Source: an uncultured Fibrobacteria bacterium (GTDB lineage: Bacteria > Fibrobacterota > Fibrobacteria > UBA11236). From it: DNA of 64,000 nt. The translations under genes were made by a program, and so were the position numbers. The stretch is from the NCBI GenBank assembly GCA_963716395.1, contig OY970309.1:3328001-3392000 (forward strand), read 5' to 3'. Shown in pieces: positions 20,632-36,671 of this stretch (positions are counted from its first letter, which is position 1; each line of letters begins with the position of its first letter). A model generated the notes under the pieces. It was not told the DNA's origin, made no database searches, and was given only the letters and a program-made list of their open reading frames with translations.

Positions 20632-20743
20632 CGGTTCACTTCCCCACCGATGTCTGGCCGTTTGCGTTGTGCAGAAAATGGCCGATTTATTAACTTTCAT
20701 GTGCTTTGATCCATTTGTGGGTCAGAGCGCTTTGATTTCTGGC

Positions 20744-21013
20744 CTCAGTTGGTAGAGCAAGTCCGCCGCAGGCGGATTAATCGCTCGACGAACTGAGACT
20801 TCAGAGGTTTGATTTGGTGCCTGATAGCTCAGTTGGTAGAGCAAGTCCGCCGCAGGCGGATTAATCGCTCGACGAACTGAGACTTCAGAGGTTTGATTTG
20901 GTGCCTGATAGCTCAGTTGGTAGAGCAAGTCCGCCGCAGGCGGATTAATCGCTCGACGAACTGAGACTTCAGAGGTTTGATTTGGTGCCTGATAGCTCAG
21001 TTGGTAGAGCAAG
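20744..21013 (+). repeat. 84-bp tandem repeat (~3.2 units): tRNA-Asn nt 1-28 + palindrome TCCGCCGCAGGCGGA + tRNA nt 35-45 + 30-bp spacer
   Basis: TGCCTGATAG recurs at 20818, 20902 and 20986; palindromes at 20762, 20846 and 20930; the first unit lacks tRNA nt 1-10. Confidence 0.97.
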
Positions 21014-21359
21014 CGACTGTTAATCGCTCGGTCCCTGGTTCGAGTCCAGGTCAGGCAGCCAACCTTGTATCCCAAGTGTTTCAAGCCTACGCACTTCGTT
21101 CTCCTGCTTCCGGCCTATTCTATTTCGGGCATACCAATGATTTGGATCGACGATTACGGGAACATAACGACCCCGCACGCGACTCACGGCATTTCACCCG
21201 AAGACATTTGCCATGGGTGCTCGTTTACTCCGAATCCTTTTTGACCAGGTCCGAAGCCATGAAAAGGGAAAAATTTTTCAAATCGGGCCAAGGAAGGGAA
21301 TGGTTAAAGCAAAAATTGGCCGAAGAAGAGTGTGGTAGAGCAAGTCCGCCGCAGGCGGA
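20930..21359 (+). mobile_element. Putative 430-bp tRNA-carrying GIY-YIG element (innermost copy), bounded by the GCA palindrome at both ends
   Basis: Palindrome-[tRNA 35-45]-spacer-intact tRNA-Asn-GIY-YIG-[tRNA 17-28]-palindrome. Both junctions read TGGTAGAGCAAG-TCCGCCGCAGGCGGA-TTAATCGCTCG. Mobility is inferred, not shown. Confidence 0.55.
20986..21061 (+). tRNA. tRNA-Asn (anticodon GTT), intact
   Basis: 76 nt: TGCCTGA/TCAGGCA acceptor stem, GCTC/GAGC D-stem, AGCGA-CTGTTAA-TCGCT anticodon arm, CCTGG-TTCGAGT-CCAGG T-arm, G-CCA end. Confidence 0.97.
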
Positions 21360-21363
21360 TTAA
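21076..21363 (+). CDS. Small GIY-YIG nuclease (copy 1, 95 aa)
   Basis: GTG start; AYAL...FYFG (GIY-YIG variant), T.DL.RRL.EHN, PW.LVYSE, A.KREKFFKSGQGREWL. Confidence 0.9.
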   Translation: MFQAYALRSPASGLFYFGHTNDLDRRLREHNDPARDSRHFTRRHLPWVLVYSESFLTRSEAMKREKFFKSGQGREWLKQKLAEEECGRASPPQAD

Positions 21364-21401
21364 TCGCTCGGTCCCTGGTTCGAGTCCAGGTCAGGCAGCC
21401 A
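21333..21401 (+). pseudogene. 3' fragment of tRNA-Asn (nt 17-28, palindrome, nt 35-76)
   Basis: Retains the T-arm and CCA; lacks the 5' acceptor strand; anticodon destroyed by the palindrome at 21345-21359. Confidence 0.9.
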
Positions 21402-21415
21402 ACCTTGTATCCCAA

Positions 21416-21703
21416 GTGTTTCAAGCCTACGCACTTCGTTCTCCTGCTTCCGGCCTATTCTATTTCGGGCATACCAATGATTTGGATCGACGATTACGGG
21501 AACATAACGACCCCGCACGCGACTCACGGCATTTCACCCGAAGACATTTGCCATGGGTGCTCGTTTACTCCGAATCCTTTTTGACCAGGTCCGAAGCCAT
21601 GAAAAGGGAAAAATTTTTCAAATCGGGCCAAGGAAGGGAATGGTTAAAGCAAAAATTGGCCGAAGAAGAGTGTGGTAGAGCAAGTCCGCCGCAGGCGGAT
21701 TAA
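21416..21703 (+). CDS. Small GIY-YIG nuclease (copy 2, identical to copy 1)
   Basis: Exact 340-bp shifted duplicate of 21076-21363. Confidence 0.9.
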   Translation: MFQAYALRSPASGLFYFGHTNDLDRRLREHNDPARDSRHFTRRHLPWVLVYSESFLTRSEAMKREKFFKSGQGREWLKQKLAEEECGRASPPQAD

Positions 21704-21741
21704 TCGCTCGGTCCCTGGTTCGAGTCCAGGTCAGGCAGCCA
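21673..21741 (+). pseudogene. Second 3' fragment of tRNA-Asn
   Basis: Identical to 21333-21401; palindrome at 21685-21699. Confidence 0.9.
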
Positions 21742-21755
21742 ACCTTGTATCCCAA

Positions 21756-22004
21756 GTGTTTCAAGCCTACGCACTTCGTTCTCCTGCTTCCGGCCTATTC
21801 TATTTCGGGCATACCGATGATTTGGATCGACGATTACGGGAACATAACGACCCCGCACGCGACTCACGGCATTTCACCCGAAGACATTTGAGCCCAATCG
21901 CCATCCTCGTGCCGAACCCGAGCAATGAAGGTTTTTGCCGACGCGCTACACTCGGATATGGACATGCGAAAGAATGCATGGCGAAATTCCTGGAACCAGA
22001 GTGA
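21756..22004 (+). pseudogene. Truncated GIY-YIG nuclease (copy 3)
   Basis: Matches copies 1/2 (one N>D change) up to FTRRHL at 21890, then reads into unrelated sequence and loses the C-terminal half with the conserved Glu. Confidence 0.85.
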
Positions 22005-22162: not shown

Positions 22163-24091
22163 ATGCGTTGGAAAATTATTTTCGTCTTCGGACTGCCTTT
22201 GTGGGCTGTGGCCGCTTCCCCACCTGCGGATTCCGTGGGTTCCGCCGAGCAGACGCAGGCGCGGGTGTATTTGAAGCAGCGTTTGCTGCAACTCAATCTG
22301 GAATTTCCATTCTCGACGTGGGCCCGGCGCCTCGATTCCCTGAACAATGAAATCGACGGCTTTCTAGCCCACCATCAACCCATGCGCTATGATCCGGCGT
22401 TGCGACCGGAGTTGCTGCGTTTTTCCGCAGCCTTGGATTCGGCGCGCGCCGAACGGCCCCAGGTGCAATCCCTCATCCATGAGATGTACGTGCAAATCAT
22501 GGTGGGGCGTATCCAAGAAGCTTTCCGCCGCGACGGCAAGACGCTGAGTCCGCAGGGGCGCGACGCACTGTATCGCGCCCTCAAGCCCTATGAGGCCGGC
22601 AGCCTGCGCCCTAAAACCGACTTTCTGGCCCAACTAGTTTCTTTGGATAGGAAATTTTCCCATGCCTACTCAACCTGGCTGTTCGAATGGGCCGGGGCCT
22701 GGTTTCCTCATTTATTGGCGACGCAATCGCAAGACACCGGTTTCGCCGCCGAAGAAGCCCAGCGGCAGGATCTGGCGCTGCAACTCGAATATTGGACGCG
22801 GCAAATCGACTCGGGCGGGGCAGCCCAGGCTGTGACCCATTTTCGGCAATTGCAGACCGAATTGCTGCAGGAAAGGCCGAGGGCGCTGGCCGACTTGCGC
22901 AGCATGGAAGCCAATCTCGATCCCGACATGTTGCTGAGCGACTTGTTGGAAGAGGCTCAGAAAGAAGGGCTTTCCTTCACCGTAGAGGCCGAAGAGCGGG
23001 TCGAAGCGGCGCTGGATGCGCGCGGACAATCCGTGCTGCTTCCCATGCGGGACAAAATCGACACCTGGATGCGTTTTGACCAAGCCCTGCAAAACGCCTT
23101 GACGCGCGCGCAGGCCACGGTGGATCGGAATCAACAGGCGATCACGGCGCATGCTGCCGAAGAACAGCAAGAACAGCAAGCGCAGCAGGAATTGGCCGCC
23201 CGCACCGAACAGGAGCAATGGGAACAACAGCGCCAGGCGGAAGAGCAGCGTGAACGCGAAGAACAGCAGCAACAACAAGAACAAGCGCGGCTGGCGGCTT
23301 TGGCCGCCGAGCAGGACTCGGCCGATGCGGCGGAGCGGGAACAGGCCGAACAAACCTTGGCGGAATGGAAAAGTTTGCAAGCCGGCGGCGCGCTGGCAGG
23401 GTTGGACGGGGCTACCGACAGCGCACTTGCCGTACACGCCGGAACTTTGAAAACCAGCACCGTGGCCAGCGGACGGACGCGGTTGCAGGTCGCGTCCCGA
23501 AAGTTTTCCGATACGCTGGCCTTTGTGGAAAAATTCACCGTGGACGAAAGCCACATCGATTTGTCCAAACTCAGCCTCGATCAAAAAGCTTCGCAATCGG
23601 CCTATGTCTACACCTCGCCGACCGGGCGCACCAACCCGCGCGATCTGGATCAATTCGTGCAGAACGTGGCGCTGGGATCTTTTAACACCGAATACCGTTT
23701 CCTTTCCTACCTGGTTCCGGAACGTCTGCGGTGCGGCCGCGATCTGGCTTGGGAATTCGATCGATCTTCCCAACCCGTTGTTCACGACCGGGTTTTCAGC
23801 TATGTCGATTTGGTGGACGACGCGCATCACAAACACGCTAAAGGCACCGGGACGCCGGCCGAGGGAGCGGAGATGAATCTGCCCGCGAATTTAATCGTTA
23901 TTTTCGACGCCCAAGGCGGCATTATGCGCTATCAATCCTTCGGCCATCCGGACCAAATATTCATCCGCCCGCAAGACCTGGTCGACGGGCGGCTGCATTA
24001 CAAGTTTTTAAACTACAGCGTCGATCGCGAAAACATCTATCTCAACGGGATCGATCCCGAGATAAAGGTCAGCGCGCCCGCCTCGGGCTGA
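22163..24091 (+). CDS. Exported hypothetical protein with Q/E-rich coiled-coil linker
   Basis: 642-aa ORF, signal peptide (MRWKIIFVFGLPLWAVAA), EEQQEQQAQQ...EQQQQQEQ region; family not recognised. Confidence 0.75.
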   Translation: MRWKIIFVFGLPLWAVAASPPADSVGSAEQTQARVYLKQRLLQLNLEFPFSTWARRLDSLNNEIDGFLAHHQPMRYDPALRPELLRFSAALDSARAERPQVQSLIHEMYVQIMVGRIQEAFRRDGKTLSPQGRDALYRALKPYEAGSLRPKTDFLAQLVSLDRKFSHAYSTWLFEWAGAWFPHLLATQSQDTGFAAEEAQRQDLALQLEYWTRQIDSGGAAQAVTHFRQLQTELLQERPRALADLRSMEANLDPDMLLSDLLEEAQKEGLSFTVEAEERVEAALDARGQSVLLPMRDKIDTWMRFDQALQNALTRAQATVDRNQQAITAHAAEEQQEQQAQQELAARTEQEQWEQQRQAEEQREREEQQQQQEQARLAALAAEQDSADAAEREQAEQTLAEWKSLQAGGALAGLDGATDSALAVHAGTLKTSTVASGRTRLQVASRKFSDTLAFVEKFTVDESHIDLSKLSLDQKASQSAYVYTSPTGRTNPRDLDQFVQNVALGSFNTEYRFLSYLVPERLRCGRDLAWEFDRSSQPVVHDRVFSYVDLVDDAHHKHAKGTGTPAEGAEMNLPANLIVIFDAQGGIMRYQSFGHPDQIFIRPQDLVDGRLHYKFLNYSVDRENIYLNGIDPEIKVSAPASG

Positions 24092-36062: not shown

Positions 36063-36671
36063 TTACCCCTGATTGGGCTGCACGATGAAGTCCTGGTATT
36101 GCCGCAGCAATGACTCCGATACCGCGGCGTCTTCACCGAGATAGCGCAGCGCCCAGGCGATAGATTCCAAGGTGGCCAACCCCGAGGGCTTGGCCTGATC
36201 GCGCTGCGATGCCTGCAGGGGCCGCAGCGCCAAACGGTTTACCCGCAACAGCCAGGGGTTGCGCCACCACAAGGCGTGGGCCTGCTTCCACGAGCCGTCG
36301 AGCAAAATAAGCCCTGCGAGCGAAGGGGTTTCCGGCAACGGTTCTTCTTTACGGTTAAACAGTTGCCAGGGCTTTTCCAAAGGATGATTGCTTTTGAGAT
36401 ACAACGCGGCCCAATGACGCGGCTCGGTGTCGACGCCCGCCGCCCGGCGCAGATTGGGCCAGGAAAGCCCCACCCGCAAAACACTATTGGACAGGATCAT
36501 ATTGGCCAGGCGCGCCGAATTCCACAGCTTCAACTGTTCCTGGGGGTGCTGCAAAATCACCACGCGCAAACGCGTGCTCTGGATTTGCACCCGGCCGCAA
36601 ACGCATTGGGAACGCGGGCGCAAACATGCGGGGCAGGCCTCGGCCTTGGCAATTTTTCGATCTTGGCGCAT
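36063..36671 (-). CDS. DTW-domain tRNA-uridine aminocarboxypropyltransferase (TapT-like)
   Basis: CPACLRP..QCVC, ILQHPQE, LLDGSW (DTW-type motif), LATLES. Start uncertain. Confidence 0.85.
   Translation of the reverse strand: MRQDRKIAKAEACPACLRPRSQCVCGRVQIQSTRLRVVILQHPQEQLKLWNSARLANMILSNSVLRVGLSWPNLRRAAGVDTEPRHWAALYLKSNHPLEKPWQLFNRKEEPLPETPSLAGLILLDGSWKQAHALWWRNPWLLRVNRLALRPLQASQRDQAKPSGLATLESIAWALRYLGEDAAVSESLLRQYQDFIVQPNQG

Follow-up and report, generated by a model that had tools for sequence, protein, structure and literature searches.

A GIY-YIG nuclease gene, a short palindrome and palindrome-substituted tRNA pieces amplified on both sides of a tRNA-Asn gene in a Fibrobacteria genome

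Ssn proteins are single-domain GIY-YIG nucleases of ~94 aa, and the hairpin repeats on both sides of their genes also occur at dispersed sites in the genome (Chenal et al. 2025, PMC11893778). Four Ssn homologs were purified; each binds its own hairpin, exclusively in single-stranded DNA, and cleaves a few bases upstream of it, and the authors liken the hairpin-gene-hairpin arrangement to an insertion sequence (PMC11893778). A second precedent is SegB of phage T4, a free-standing GIY-YIG homing endonuclease encoded in a tRNA gene cluster, whose site includes a conserved tRNA motif (PMC2330249). Here we describe a locus in an uncultured Fibrobacteria bacterium at which a small GIY-YIG gene is found among pieces of a tRNA-Asn gene. 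The locus occupies positions 20744-21890 of a 64,000-nt stretch, hereafter the window (contig OY970309.1, positions 3,328,001 to 3,392,000 of the forward strand), and all of its features lie on the plus strand. It is a locally amplified copy of a widespread tRNA-gene module that consists of a nuclease gene encoding ~95 aa, a short palindrome (H), and partial tRNA copies in which H has been substituted for a few tRNA letters.

At the centre of the locus is an intact tRNA-Asn(GTT) gene at 20986-21061, which ARAGORN reports as the sole tRNA-Asn gene among 46 tRNA genes in the host genome, a single contig of 3.75 Mb. Repeat finders delimited one array on each side: 3.2 copies of an 84-bp unit at 100% identity on the left (20744-21013), and 2.6 copies of a 340-bp unit at 99% identity on the right (21020-21890). 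H is a 15-nt palindrome (TCCGCCGCAGGCGGA) whose five identical copies start at 20762, 20846, 20930, 21345 and 21685; shuffling gave an expectation of 0.06 copies, and none of 100 shuffles reached five. In every partial tRNA copy, H takes the place of CGACTG (tRNA nt 29-34). We named the remaining tRNA segments A (nt 1-28), a (nt 17-28), b (nt 35-45) and B (nt 35-76), and a 30-bp spacer S. Left unit 2 (20818-20901) then reads A 20818-20845, H 20846-20860, b 20861-20871 and S 20872-20901, and left unit 3 (20902-20985) reads A 20902-20929, H 20930-20944, b 20945-20955 and S 20956-20985. The outermost unit, left unit 1 (20744-20817), begins with tRNA nt 11-28 and continues with H (20762-20776), b (20777-20787) and S (20788-20817). 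To the right of the intact tRNA, copies of the nuclease gene alternate with pseudo-tRNAs: gene copy 1 (21076-21363), pseudo-tRNA 1 (21333-21401; a 21333-21344, H 21345-21359, B 21360-21401), gene copy 2 (21416-21703), identical to copy 1, pseudo-tRNA 2 (21673-21741; a 21673-21684, H 21685-21699, B 21700-21741) and a truncated gene copy 3. The a-H-b core, 38 nt with a GCA loop, is identical between the left and right units. Among all tRNA copies at the locus, Rfam scored the central one alone as a tRNA (69.3 bits). A group I intron in the tRNA was considered and rejected, as Rfam at E <= 1 gave just the tRNA and one chance-level match. This order of parts, the segment boundaries and the replacement of CGACTG by H had been proposed in a sequence-only reading of the window and were reproduced exactly from the sequence with repeat finders and ARAGORN; its three left units, its three nuclease copies and its identification of the flanking pieces as halves of the same tRNA were likewise confirmed.

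Gene copy 1 starts with GTG at 21076, 14 nt past the CCA end of the tRNA, and ends with TAA at 21363, encoding 95 aa. Its last ten codons and TAA stop are encoded by a, H and the tRNA letters TTAA. The product matches the Pfam family GIY-YIG (PF01541) over residues 5-70 with 55.4 bits against a cut-off of 22.6 and has no second Pfam domain, and an NCBIfam search with the protein gave no match. In an alignment of 43 homologs, Y16, R26 and E65 are invariant and Y5 is nearly so. The closest solved structures in a PDB sequence search were the UPF0213 proteins 1ywl and 1zg2 (E 7e-15 and 2e-14), followed by SLX1. No further copy of the gene was found in the genome, where PF01541 matches elsewhere one long frame only. 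Within 20744-21890, GIY-YIG is the sole coding family; the flanking genes encode a DEAD-box helicase and a protein without a Pfam family. The family matches of open reading frames in or beside the locus were to GIY-YIG and DEAD-box helicase only, with no integrase or recombinase among them, in agreement with the earlier statement that the element has no integrase or transposase in or beside it. Its proposed likeness to homing endonucleases fared less well, as the 95-aa protein is nothing more than the nuclease domain and lacks the DNA-binding domain that classical GIY-YIG homing enzymes possess.

Several described systems share parts of this arrangement. Tyrosine-integrase islands at tRNA genes leave the tRNA intact on insertion, with a direct repeat of its 3' part at the far border. 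The window locus differs from them in having no integrase, a unit of 340 bp, 5' halves that are also repeated, and a palindrome inside the repeats. In fungal mitochondria, GC clusters and mobile open reading frames offer another parallel, as GC-rich palindromes and endonuclease reading frames move together and leave duplicated gene ends; these are organellar, and their enzymes and targets differ from those of the window locus. Seg proteins are larger and carry a DNA-binding part, whereas the nuclease described here is a bare 95-aa domain encoded in a bacterial chromosome. SegB resembles it in being the product of a GIY-YIG gene among tRNA genes, and it spreads itself together with neighbouring tRNA genes (PMC2330249). 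It cuts the double-stranded DNA of phages that lack the gene, and the abstract of that study mentions no hairpin repeat, split tRNA copies or arrays (PMC2330249). Like H, REP/BIME sequences, CGTC-tagged REPs included, are short GC-rich palindromes with tens of dispersed copies, many of them paired in inverted orientation (Di Nocera et al. 2013, PMC3733652). In contrast, the enzyme here is of the GIY-YIG type and not an HUH/Y1 transposase, and the relevant passages of Di Nocera et al. refer neither to GIY-YIG nor to residence at tRNA genes (PMC3733652). The hairpin-guided single-strand transposition of IS200/IS605, as summarised in PMC11893778, is similar in that a small enzyme reads hairpins in single-stranded DNA.

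The closest match is to Ssn. Both are single GIY-YIG domains of ~94 aa that share the positions of Tyr, Tyr and Glu; H is present on both sides of the gene (three copies upstream, two downstream), is dispersed, and tracks the presence of the gene; and many enzyme/hairpin pairs co-vary (PMC11893778). Judged by this analogy in size, domain, catalytic positions and hairpin context, the window nuclease is probably of the Ssn kind. Unlike in Ssn, the gene described here resides at a tRNA gene among hairpin-substituted tRNA pieces, and the word tRNA does not occur in the main text of the Ssn paper (PMC11893778). H also misfits the published SRM search pattern (PMC11893778). That pattern has a single match in the window, at 36087 on the minus strand and unrelated to H, and 15 in the genome.

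The two ends of the locus differ in character. On the right, gene copy 3 (21756-21890) keeps 45 codons with a single A>G change at 21816 (Asn21 to Asp); it is cut after codon 45, with the Glu65 region gone, and is joined to unrelated DNA. When the rest of copy 3 or a final a-H-B was sought 3' of 21890, neither was found, the best local score being 16 compared to a shuffle mean of 16.9. On the left, local alignment revealed a diverged look-alike at 20722-20745, comprising the end of S (its last 17 nt) and tRNA nt 2-5; compared to the inner units it has a gap of 7 nt. The match has TCAGAG-G-TTTGATTT at its core, and an equally good score was obtained in 10 of 500 shuffles. Identity changes abruptly from roughly three-quarters to 100% at 20744. 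The look-alike represents either an older shell or the native flank; the native sequence left of the array is similar to the last 17 nt of S, and the terminator-like hairpin 3' of rhlE (20701-20740) has a T-rich tail, TTTGATTTCT, which is the part that resembles S. The sequence-only reading had confined damage to the outermost unit on each side, which is correct for the right side, where copy 3 is truncated and carries the one nucleotide change, and incorrect for the left as a simple cut at tRNA nt 11, given the diverged look-alike upstream.

We compared the locus with four soil-metagenome runs in the form of Logan contigs, which are short pieces, none spanning the arrays. A 362-nt contig is identical to 21117-21478 and spans one gene/a-H-B/gene joint; its source may be the same sample as that of the genome assembly. 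A second identical piece of 156 nt lies inside the right array, and the other pieces are tRNA look-alikes from other organisms. A 194-nt contig (20977-21282) matches without a difference the end of S, the tRNA and the first letters of the gene, after which 25 other letters replace 145 nt of the nuclease gene. This contig represents a relative with a remodelled gene copy.

As single-stranded DNA, left unit 2 is predicted to form a 68-nt hairpin with H at its tip (-18.9 kcal/mol, z -3.94, matched by none of 200 shuffles). S begins with 17 nt of which 13 agree with tRNA nt 4-20 read as the reverse complement, and each left unit is therefore a 68-nt imperfect palindrome tipped by H. A fold-back origin of left units as a general feature was rejected, since just three of 13 left units tested across loci had z <= -3.

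The comparison with relatives covered 60 genomes, of which 11 are from the same genus. A near homolog of the nuclease was found in one alone, G035, which belongs to the same order and a different family (47% identity, E 1.3e-17); the homologs in the 11 same-genus genomes had at most 42% identity, with E 4e-7 or weaker, and lay away from the tRNA-Asn locus. In five same-genus genomes (G002, G005, G007, G010 and G011) rhlE is followed by a single tRNA-Asn, with no fragments and no nuclease gene. The empty-site check suggested for the rhlE-tRNA-Asn locus thus gave five empty sites, and these constitute a presence/absence polymorphism at a fixed site, a trait of homing endonucleases. The G035 locus (L004) has two left units, an intact tRNA-Asn, the gene, and an a-H'-B copy interrupted by two more insertions, and so repeats the two-sided plan of the window locus with different letters. 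A 12-nt tRNA relic lies ~100 nt farther along, equalled in none of 300 shuffles. The tRNA-Asn itself differs in type within the genus. The host of the window (G000) and G005 share one type at 97% identity, common to another genus of the family, and in five other same-genus genomes (the L113, L123-L127 comparison) the tRNA-Asn has 80-82% identity and differs in its anticodon stem and T arm. It is conceivable that a cassette-borne copy replaced the tRNA-Asn in the past.

Beyond this order, a protein search among 5.8 billion sequences returned 42 homologs, the best 67% identical, many on contigs of ~0.5-1 kb. Of 22 alignment rows listed, six, including that of the window protein, have the C-terminus (S/G)PPQAD, which is H read as codons. 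We assembled a family set of 160 loci, 80 from species genomes and 80 from metagenomes. A same-strand tRNA was found within 200 nt of the gene in 122 of the 160. Where at least 280 nt of flank was available on both sides, the tRNA was adjacent in 98 of 114 loci, upstream of the gene in 68 and downstream in 30. The commonest partner was tRNA-Asn (32 of the 65 rows with a call), followed by Met, Ser, Gln, Pro and others. We found 99 distinct fragments in 67 loci in which a GC-rich palindrome of 10-22 nt stands in place of 3-14 nt of tRNA. The sequence-only reading had proposed a search for small GIY-YIG genes near tRNAs with split halves, and these counts are its positive outcome. The junctions follow a rule: over 40 events in the genome set, the replaced stretch starts with C in 32 and ends with G in 36, and the palindrome starts with T in 34 and ends with A in 33. 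The position replaced varies by clade and may be the D loop, either side of the anticodon arm, or the T arm. On either side of the palindrome, truncated tRNA stubs have a median of 13 nt (interquartile range 11-19), with a floor of 9 nt imposed by the seed length. In 63 of 81 loci, a hairpin of one of six classes is present within 400 nt of the gene. L142, the 1100-nt contig that encodes the closest protein relative (67% identity), has the same ~112 nt at both ends and therefore represents either a tandem unit of 988 bp or an assembly that resembles a circle. On it are the nuclease gene, a pseudo-tRNA bearing two hairpins of the H type and a gene for an RRM-type RNA-binding protein, and no intact tRNA.

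The protein tree, built from 80 rows and 85 columns after two rows were dropped for early stops, is poorly resolved, with six of 77 branches starred. Shuffling of labels on this tree gave contrasts that are indicative only, since rows share labels by descent and the shuffles overstate significance: tRNA identity requires 18 changes (shuffled mean 31.8, minimum 27, 300 shuffles), phylum 30 (mean 43.2, minimum 39; none of 300 as low), and hairpin class, over 62 rows, 10 (mean 20.1, minimum 17; none of 300 as low). Well-supported clades unite distant phyla at one tRNA type, such as a Pro clade that joins Pseudomonadota with two candidate phyla.

H is also a dispersed repeat. We searched 61 genomes with the pattern TCCGCC-NNN-GGCGGA, using the pattern read backwards as the control. 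The genome of the window has 64 copies compared to three for the control, and G035 has 27 compared to none; these two, the carriers of the gene and of its near homolog, rank top of the 61. G038 follows with 13 copies and one control match, and the other 58 genomes have at most 11, with controls of up to 13. Within the 61, the unpublished genome G025 has three copies and four control matches and supports no claim. Five carriers of other lineages have 137, 53, 51, 18 and 15 copies with zero or one control match, and H is dispersed in four of them (137, 53, 51 and 15 copies). H copies in the window's genome are often found in inverted pairs ~36 nt apart, like REP/BIME clusters. Near tRNA genes elsewhere in this genome, two of 59 other copies lie within 300 nt by eye, which is not clearly above chance. 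H also tips a 55-nt palindrome (GGTACCTCT...AGAGGTACC) in five of its six copies (e.g. C1:139213, 1041776, 1244544, 1804808 and 2768074); with five filled copies and one without H, there are too few to define what H replaces there. One copy of this palindrome lies 23 nt 3' of a tRNA-Leu(TAA).

Fragment numbers on the two sides were compared in 40 loci with enough flank and with the tRNA upstream of the gene. Fragments of the 5' end upstream and of the 3' end downstream of the intact tRNA were counted, with a fragment caller that used exact 9-10-nt seeds. Left and right numbers were independent of each other (rho -0.14, p 0.39): 31 loci were unequal, four were equal and non-zero, and five had none. 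The left:right pattern was 0:1 in 17 loci and 0:2 in six (L037 among the latter), and the extremes of 4:0 (L067, with one gene) and 1:3 occurred in single loci. Gene copies tracked right fragments (rho 0.41) and not left (rho 0.09). A tandem array lies near the gene in 28 of the 160 loci, one array in each. The longest form of one-sided growth is in G064, where 17.4 copies of a 111-bp unit (L226 668-2586) follow a tRNA-Arg(ACG) (L226 631-707). Each unit consists of the 3' part of tRNA-Arg, a spacer of 44 nt, a tRNA stub of 11 nt and H. The array contains no nuclease gene, and that of this genome sits at another tRNA-Arg locus (L050). This gene-less, one-sided array, together with the uncorrelated counts, indicates that H-bearing units multiply on one side alone and without the gene.

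In the surroundings of the locus, a promoter scan gave no sites, and a terminator scan gave two terminator-like sites, not above chance. A 642-aa open reading frame directly downstream (22163-24091) has no Pfam family and contains a long Gln/Glu-rich stretch; it is not kept beside tRNA-Asn in five same-genus loci.

We favour, at about even confidence, an explanation in which hairpin-directed nicking is followed by out-of-register repair among the tRNA-derived repeats, on each side separately. By analogy with Ssn, H itself is a likelier nuclease site than the CGACTG of the intact tRNA (PMC11893778). We infer that H is the cutting signal and repair the amplifier. H would fold when the DNA is single-stranded, during replication, repair or uptake, and the nuclease would bind it and nick about a dozen bases upstream, within tRNA-derived sequence. 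The broken end, having tRNA homology, would use a sister copy as its repair template and would often align out of register with the direct repeats of tRNA origin. Every misaligned repair would then gain or lose one H-bearing unit, of 84 bp on the left or of 340 bp with the gene on the right. The intact tRNA would survive because it is the only tRNA-Asn of the cell. Between species, the tRNA pieces could act as portable homology arms, and the nuclease gene may be transcribed by read-through from the tRNA promoter. Nicking and repair would account for one H per unit, the frequency of arrays, the independence of the two sides, the dispersed H, and the co-variation of hairpin and enzyme.

Several observations weigh against this explanation. 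The first two-sided layer with its shared a-H-b core and the 3:3 symmetry is left unaccounted for. The equal counts at this locus are as nesting predicts, as are the two left units, one right unit and 12-nt relic in G035; two-sided arrays occur in no other of the 160 loci, and a coincidence of two independent arrays would be uncommon. The H copies of G064 cluster, with 16 of 18 in one array, so that not every carrier has a dispersed H. No H copy at the locus fits the degenerate SRM pattern of the Ssn paper, and published SsnA cuts one strand orientation only (PMC11893778). The label contrasts on the tree are inflated by shared descent, as noted above. The 3:3 symmetry is not decisive, because break repair off a sister copy yields the same sequences whether one or both ends misalign: if a break in the central tRNA were repaired in this way, misalignment of one end would give one-sided growth and misalignment of both would give apparent nesting. 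For the origin of the first layer, a composite insertion or a staggered cut on both sides of H with fill-in is a live option.

A transposition-like system is a less probable alternative, which we regard as unlikely at present. The nuclease would cut at a fixed distance upstream of H on each strand, C...G tips would become T-CCGCC...GGCGG-A, and a two-H composite carrying a spare tRNA and the gene would re-enter its own tRNA. Cuts at a fixed distance on each strand would explain the ~13-nt stubs on both sides of H and the 38-nt a-H-b core, and composite re-entry would give nesting like that of a Russian doll, as well as spread across phyla with the tRNA as portable homology.

The sequence-only reading had proposed nesting of this kind by another route, in which a 430-bp unit (H-b-S-tRNA-gene-a-H) repeatedly replaces a nuclease-cut CGACTG, splitting the old tRNA and supplying a new one. 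The order of the parts is exactly as predicted, with three left units and three gene copies; the 38-nt core with its GCA loop is common to both sides; damage is confined to the outermost parts; and the G035 locus is two-sided too, with two left units, one right unit and the 12-nt relic. SegB is a precedent for a GIY-YIG homing enzyme that recognises tRNA-gene sequence (PMC2330249). Against this, the correlation of left and right copy numbers expected under nesting was not observed in the 40 related loci, a comparison made at the level of the family and not of strains, and gene copies did not follow left units. Arrays can be one-sided and without a gene, up to 17 units long, and a two-layer 2:2:2 case was not found among the 160 loci. 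H, which bounds the 430-bp unit in that reading, is not private to it; it is dispersed through the genome and tracks the gene. The enzyme has no DNA-binding domain beyond its 95-aa core, the a-H-B that should form the outer right shell is absent 3' of 21890, and ordinary tandem arrays also decay at their edges. Repeated self-insertion is therefore doubtful. What stands of the proposed self-inserting tRNA element is its association with a tRNA gene and its nature as a selfish nuclease cassette that moves horizontally; the dispersal of H, the uncorrelated counts and the gene-less one-sided array argue against obligate self-nesting.

We also considered a passive history, in which one old insertion made the tRNA-derived repeats and slippage or unequal crossing-over amplified each side with the nuclease uninvolved, being perhaps inert or serving some other function. 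This would fit the perfect 84-bp and 340-bp tandem units, the independence of left and right numbers across the family, the existence of arrays without the gene, and the broken copy 3. However, the arrays found near the gene have one H per unit, which suggests a role for H in promoting the events; the catalytic residues are preserved in two gene copies that are intact and identical; and hairpin class co-varies with the protein tree. Purely passive growth thus seems improbable.

Site-specific integration, in which a small circle of a-H-B and the gene recombines with the 3' half of the tRNA in the manner of integrase islands and stacks in tandem, is very unlikely. The succession of tRNA, gene and repeated 3' part of the tRNA is the classic attL/attR picture, and the right-only form is the commonest, with no left and one right fragment in 17 of 40 loci, but there is no recombinase in or adjoining the locus, the left units are unexplained, and no circle junction was found among the metagenome contigs, the only form of data searched. 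An assembly artefact affecting the copy numbers or the entire array is the least probable of all: perfect repeats are error-prone to assemble, but the genome was assembled as one 3.75-Mb contig, a separate 362-nt contig matches the gene/a-H-B/gene joint exactly, and similar arrays are present in many independent assemblies.

Collectively, these results identify the locus as an unusually elaborate version of a selfish DNA module that is widespread and whose link with tRNA genes was not found in the literature searched; no paper was found on GIY-YIG genes among split tRNA copies in bacteria, with subscription journals and supplements outside the search. To what is known of such nucleases the locus adds a two-sided triple array, a dispersal of H that goes along with the gene in close relatives, a junction rule (C...G to T...A), stubs of ~13 nt and a family-wide test of nesting. 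Its two-sided amplification around an essential tRNA of which there is one copy, its two intact genes and its five identical sites make it the clearest test bed among the loci compared. If our reading is correct, it would account for a frequent cause of broken assemblies and for odd pseudo-tRNAs beside tRNA genes, and it would provide natural enzyme/hairpin pairs with mapped footprints for single-strand DNA tools. Ssn enzymes would gain a biological context that was left open by their discoverers, and the tRNA genes of many bacterial phyla would be the natural home of tiny hairpin-directed nucleases of single-stranded DNA with a selfish life cycle.

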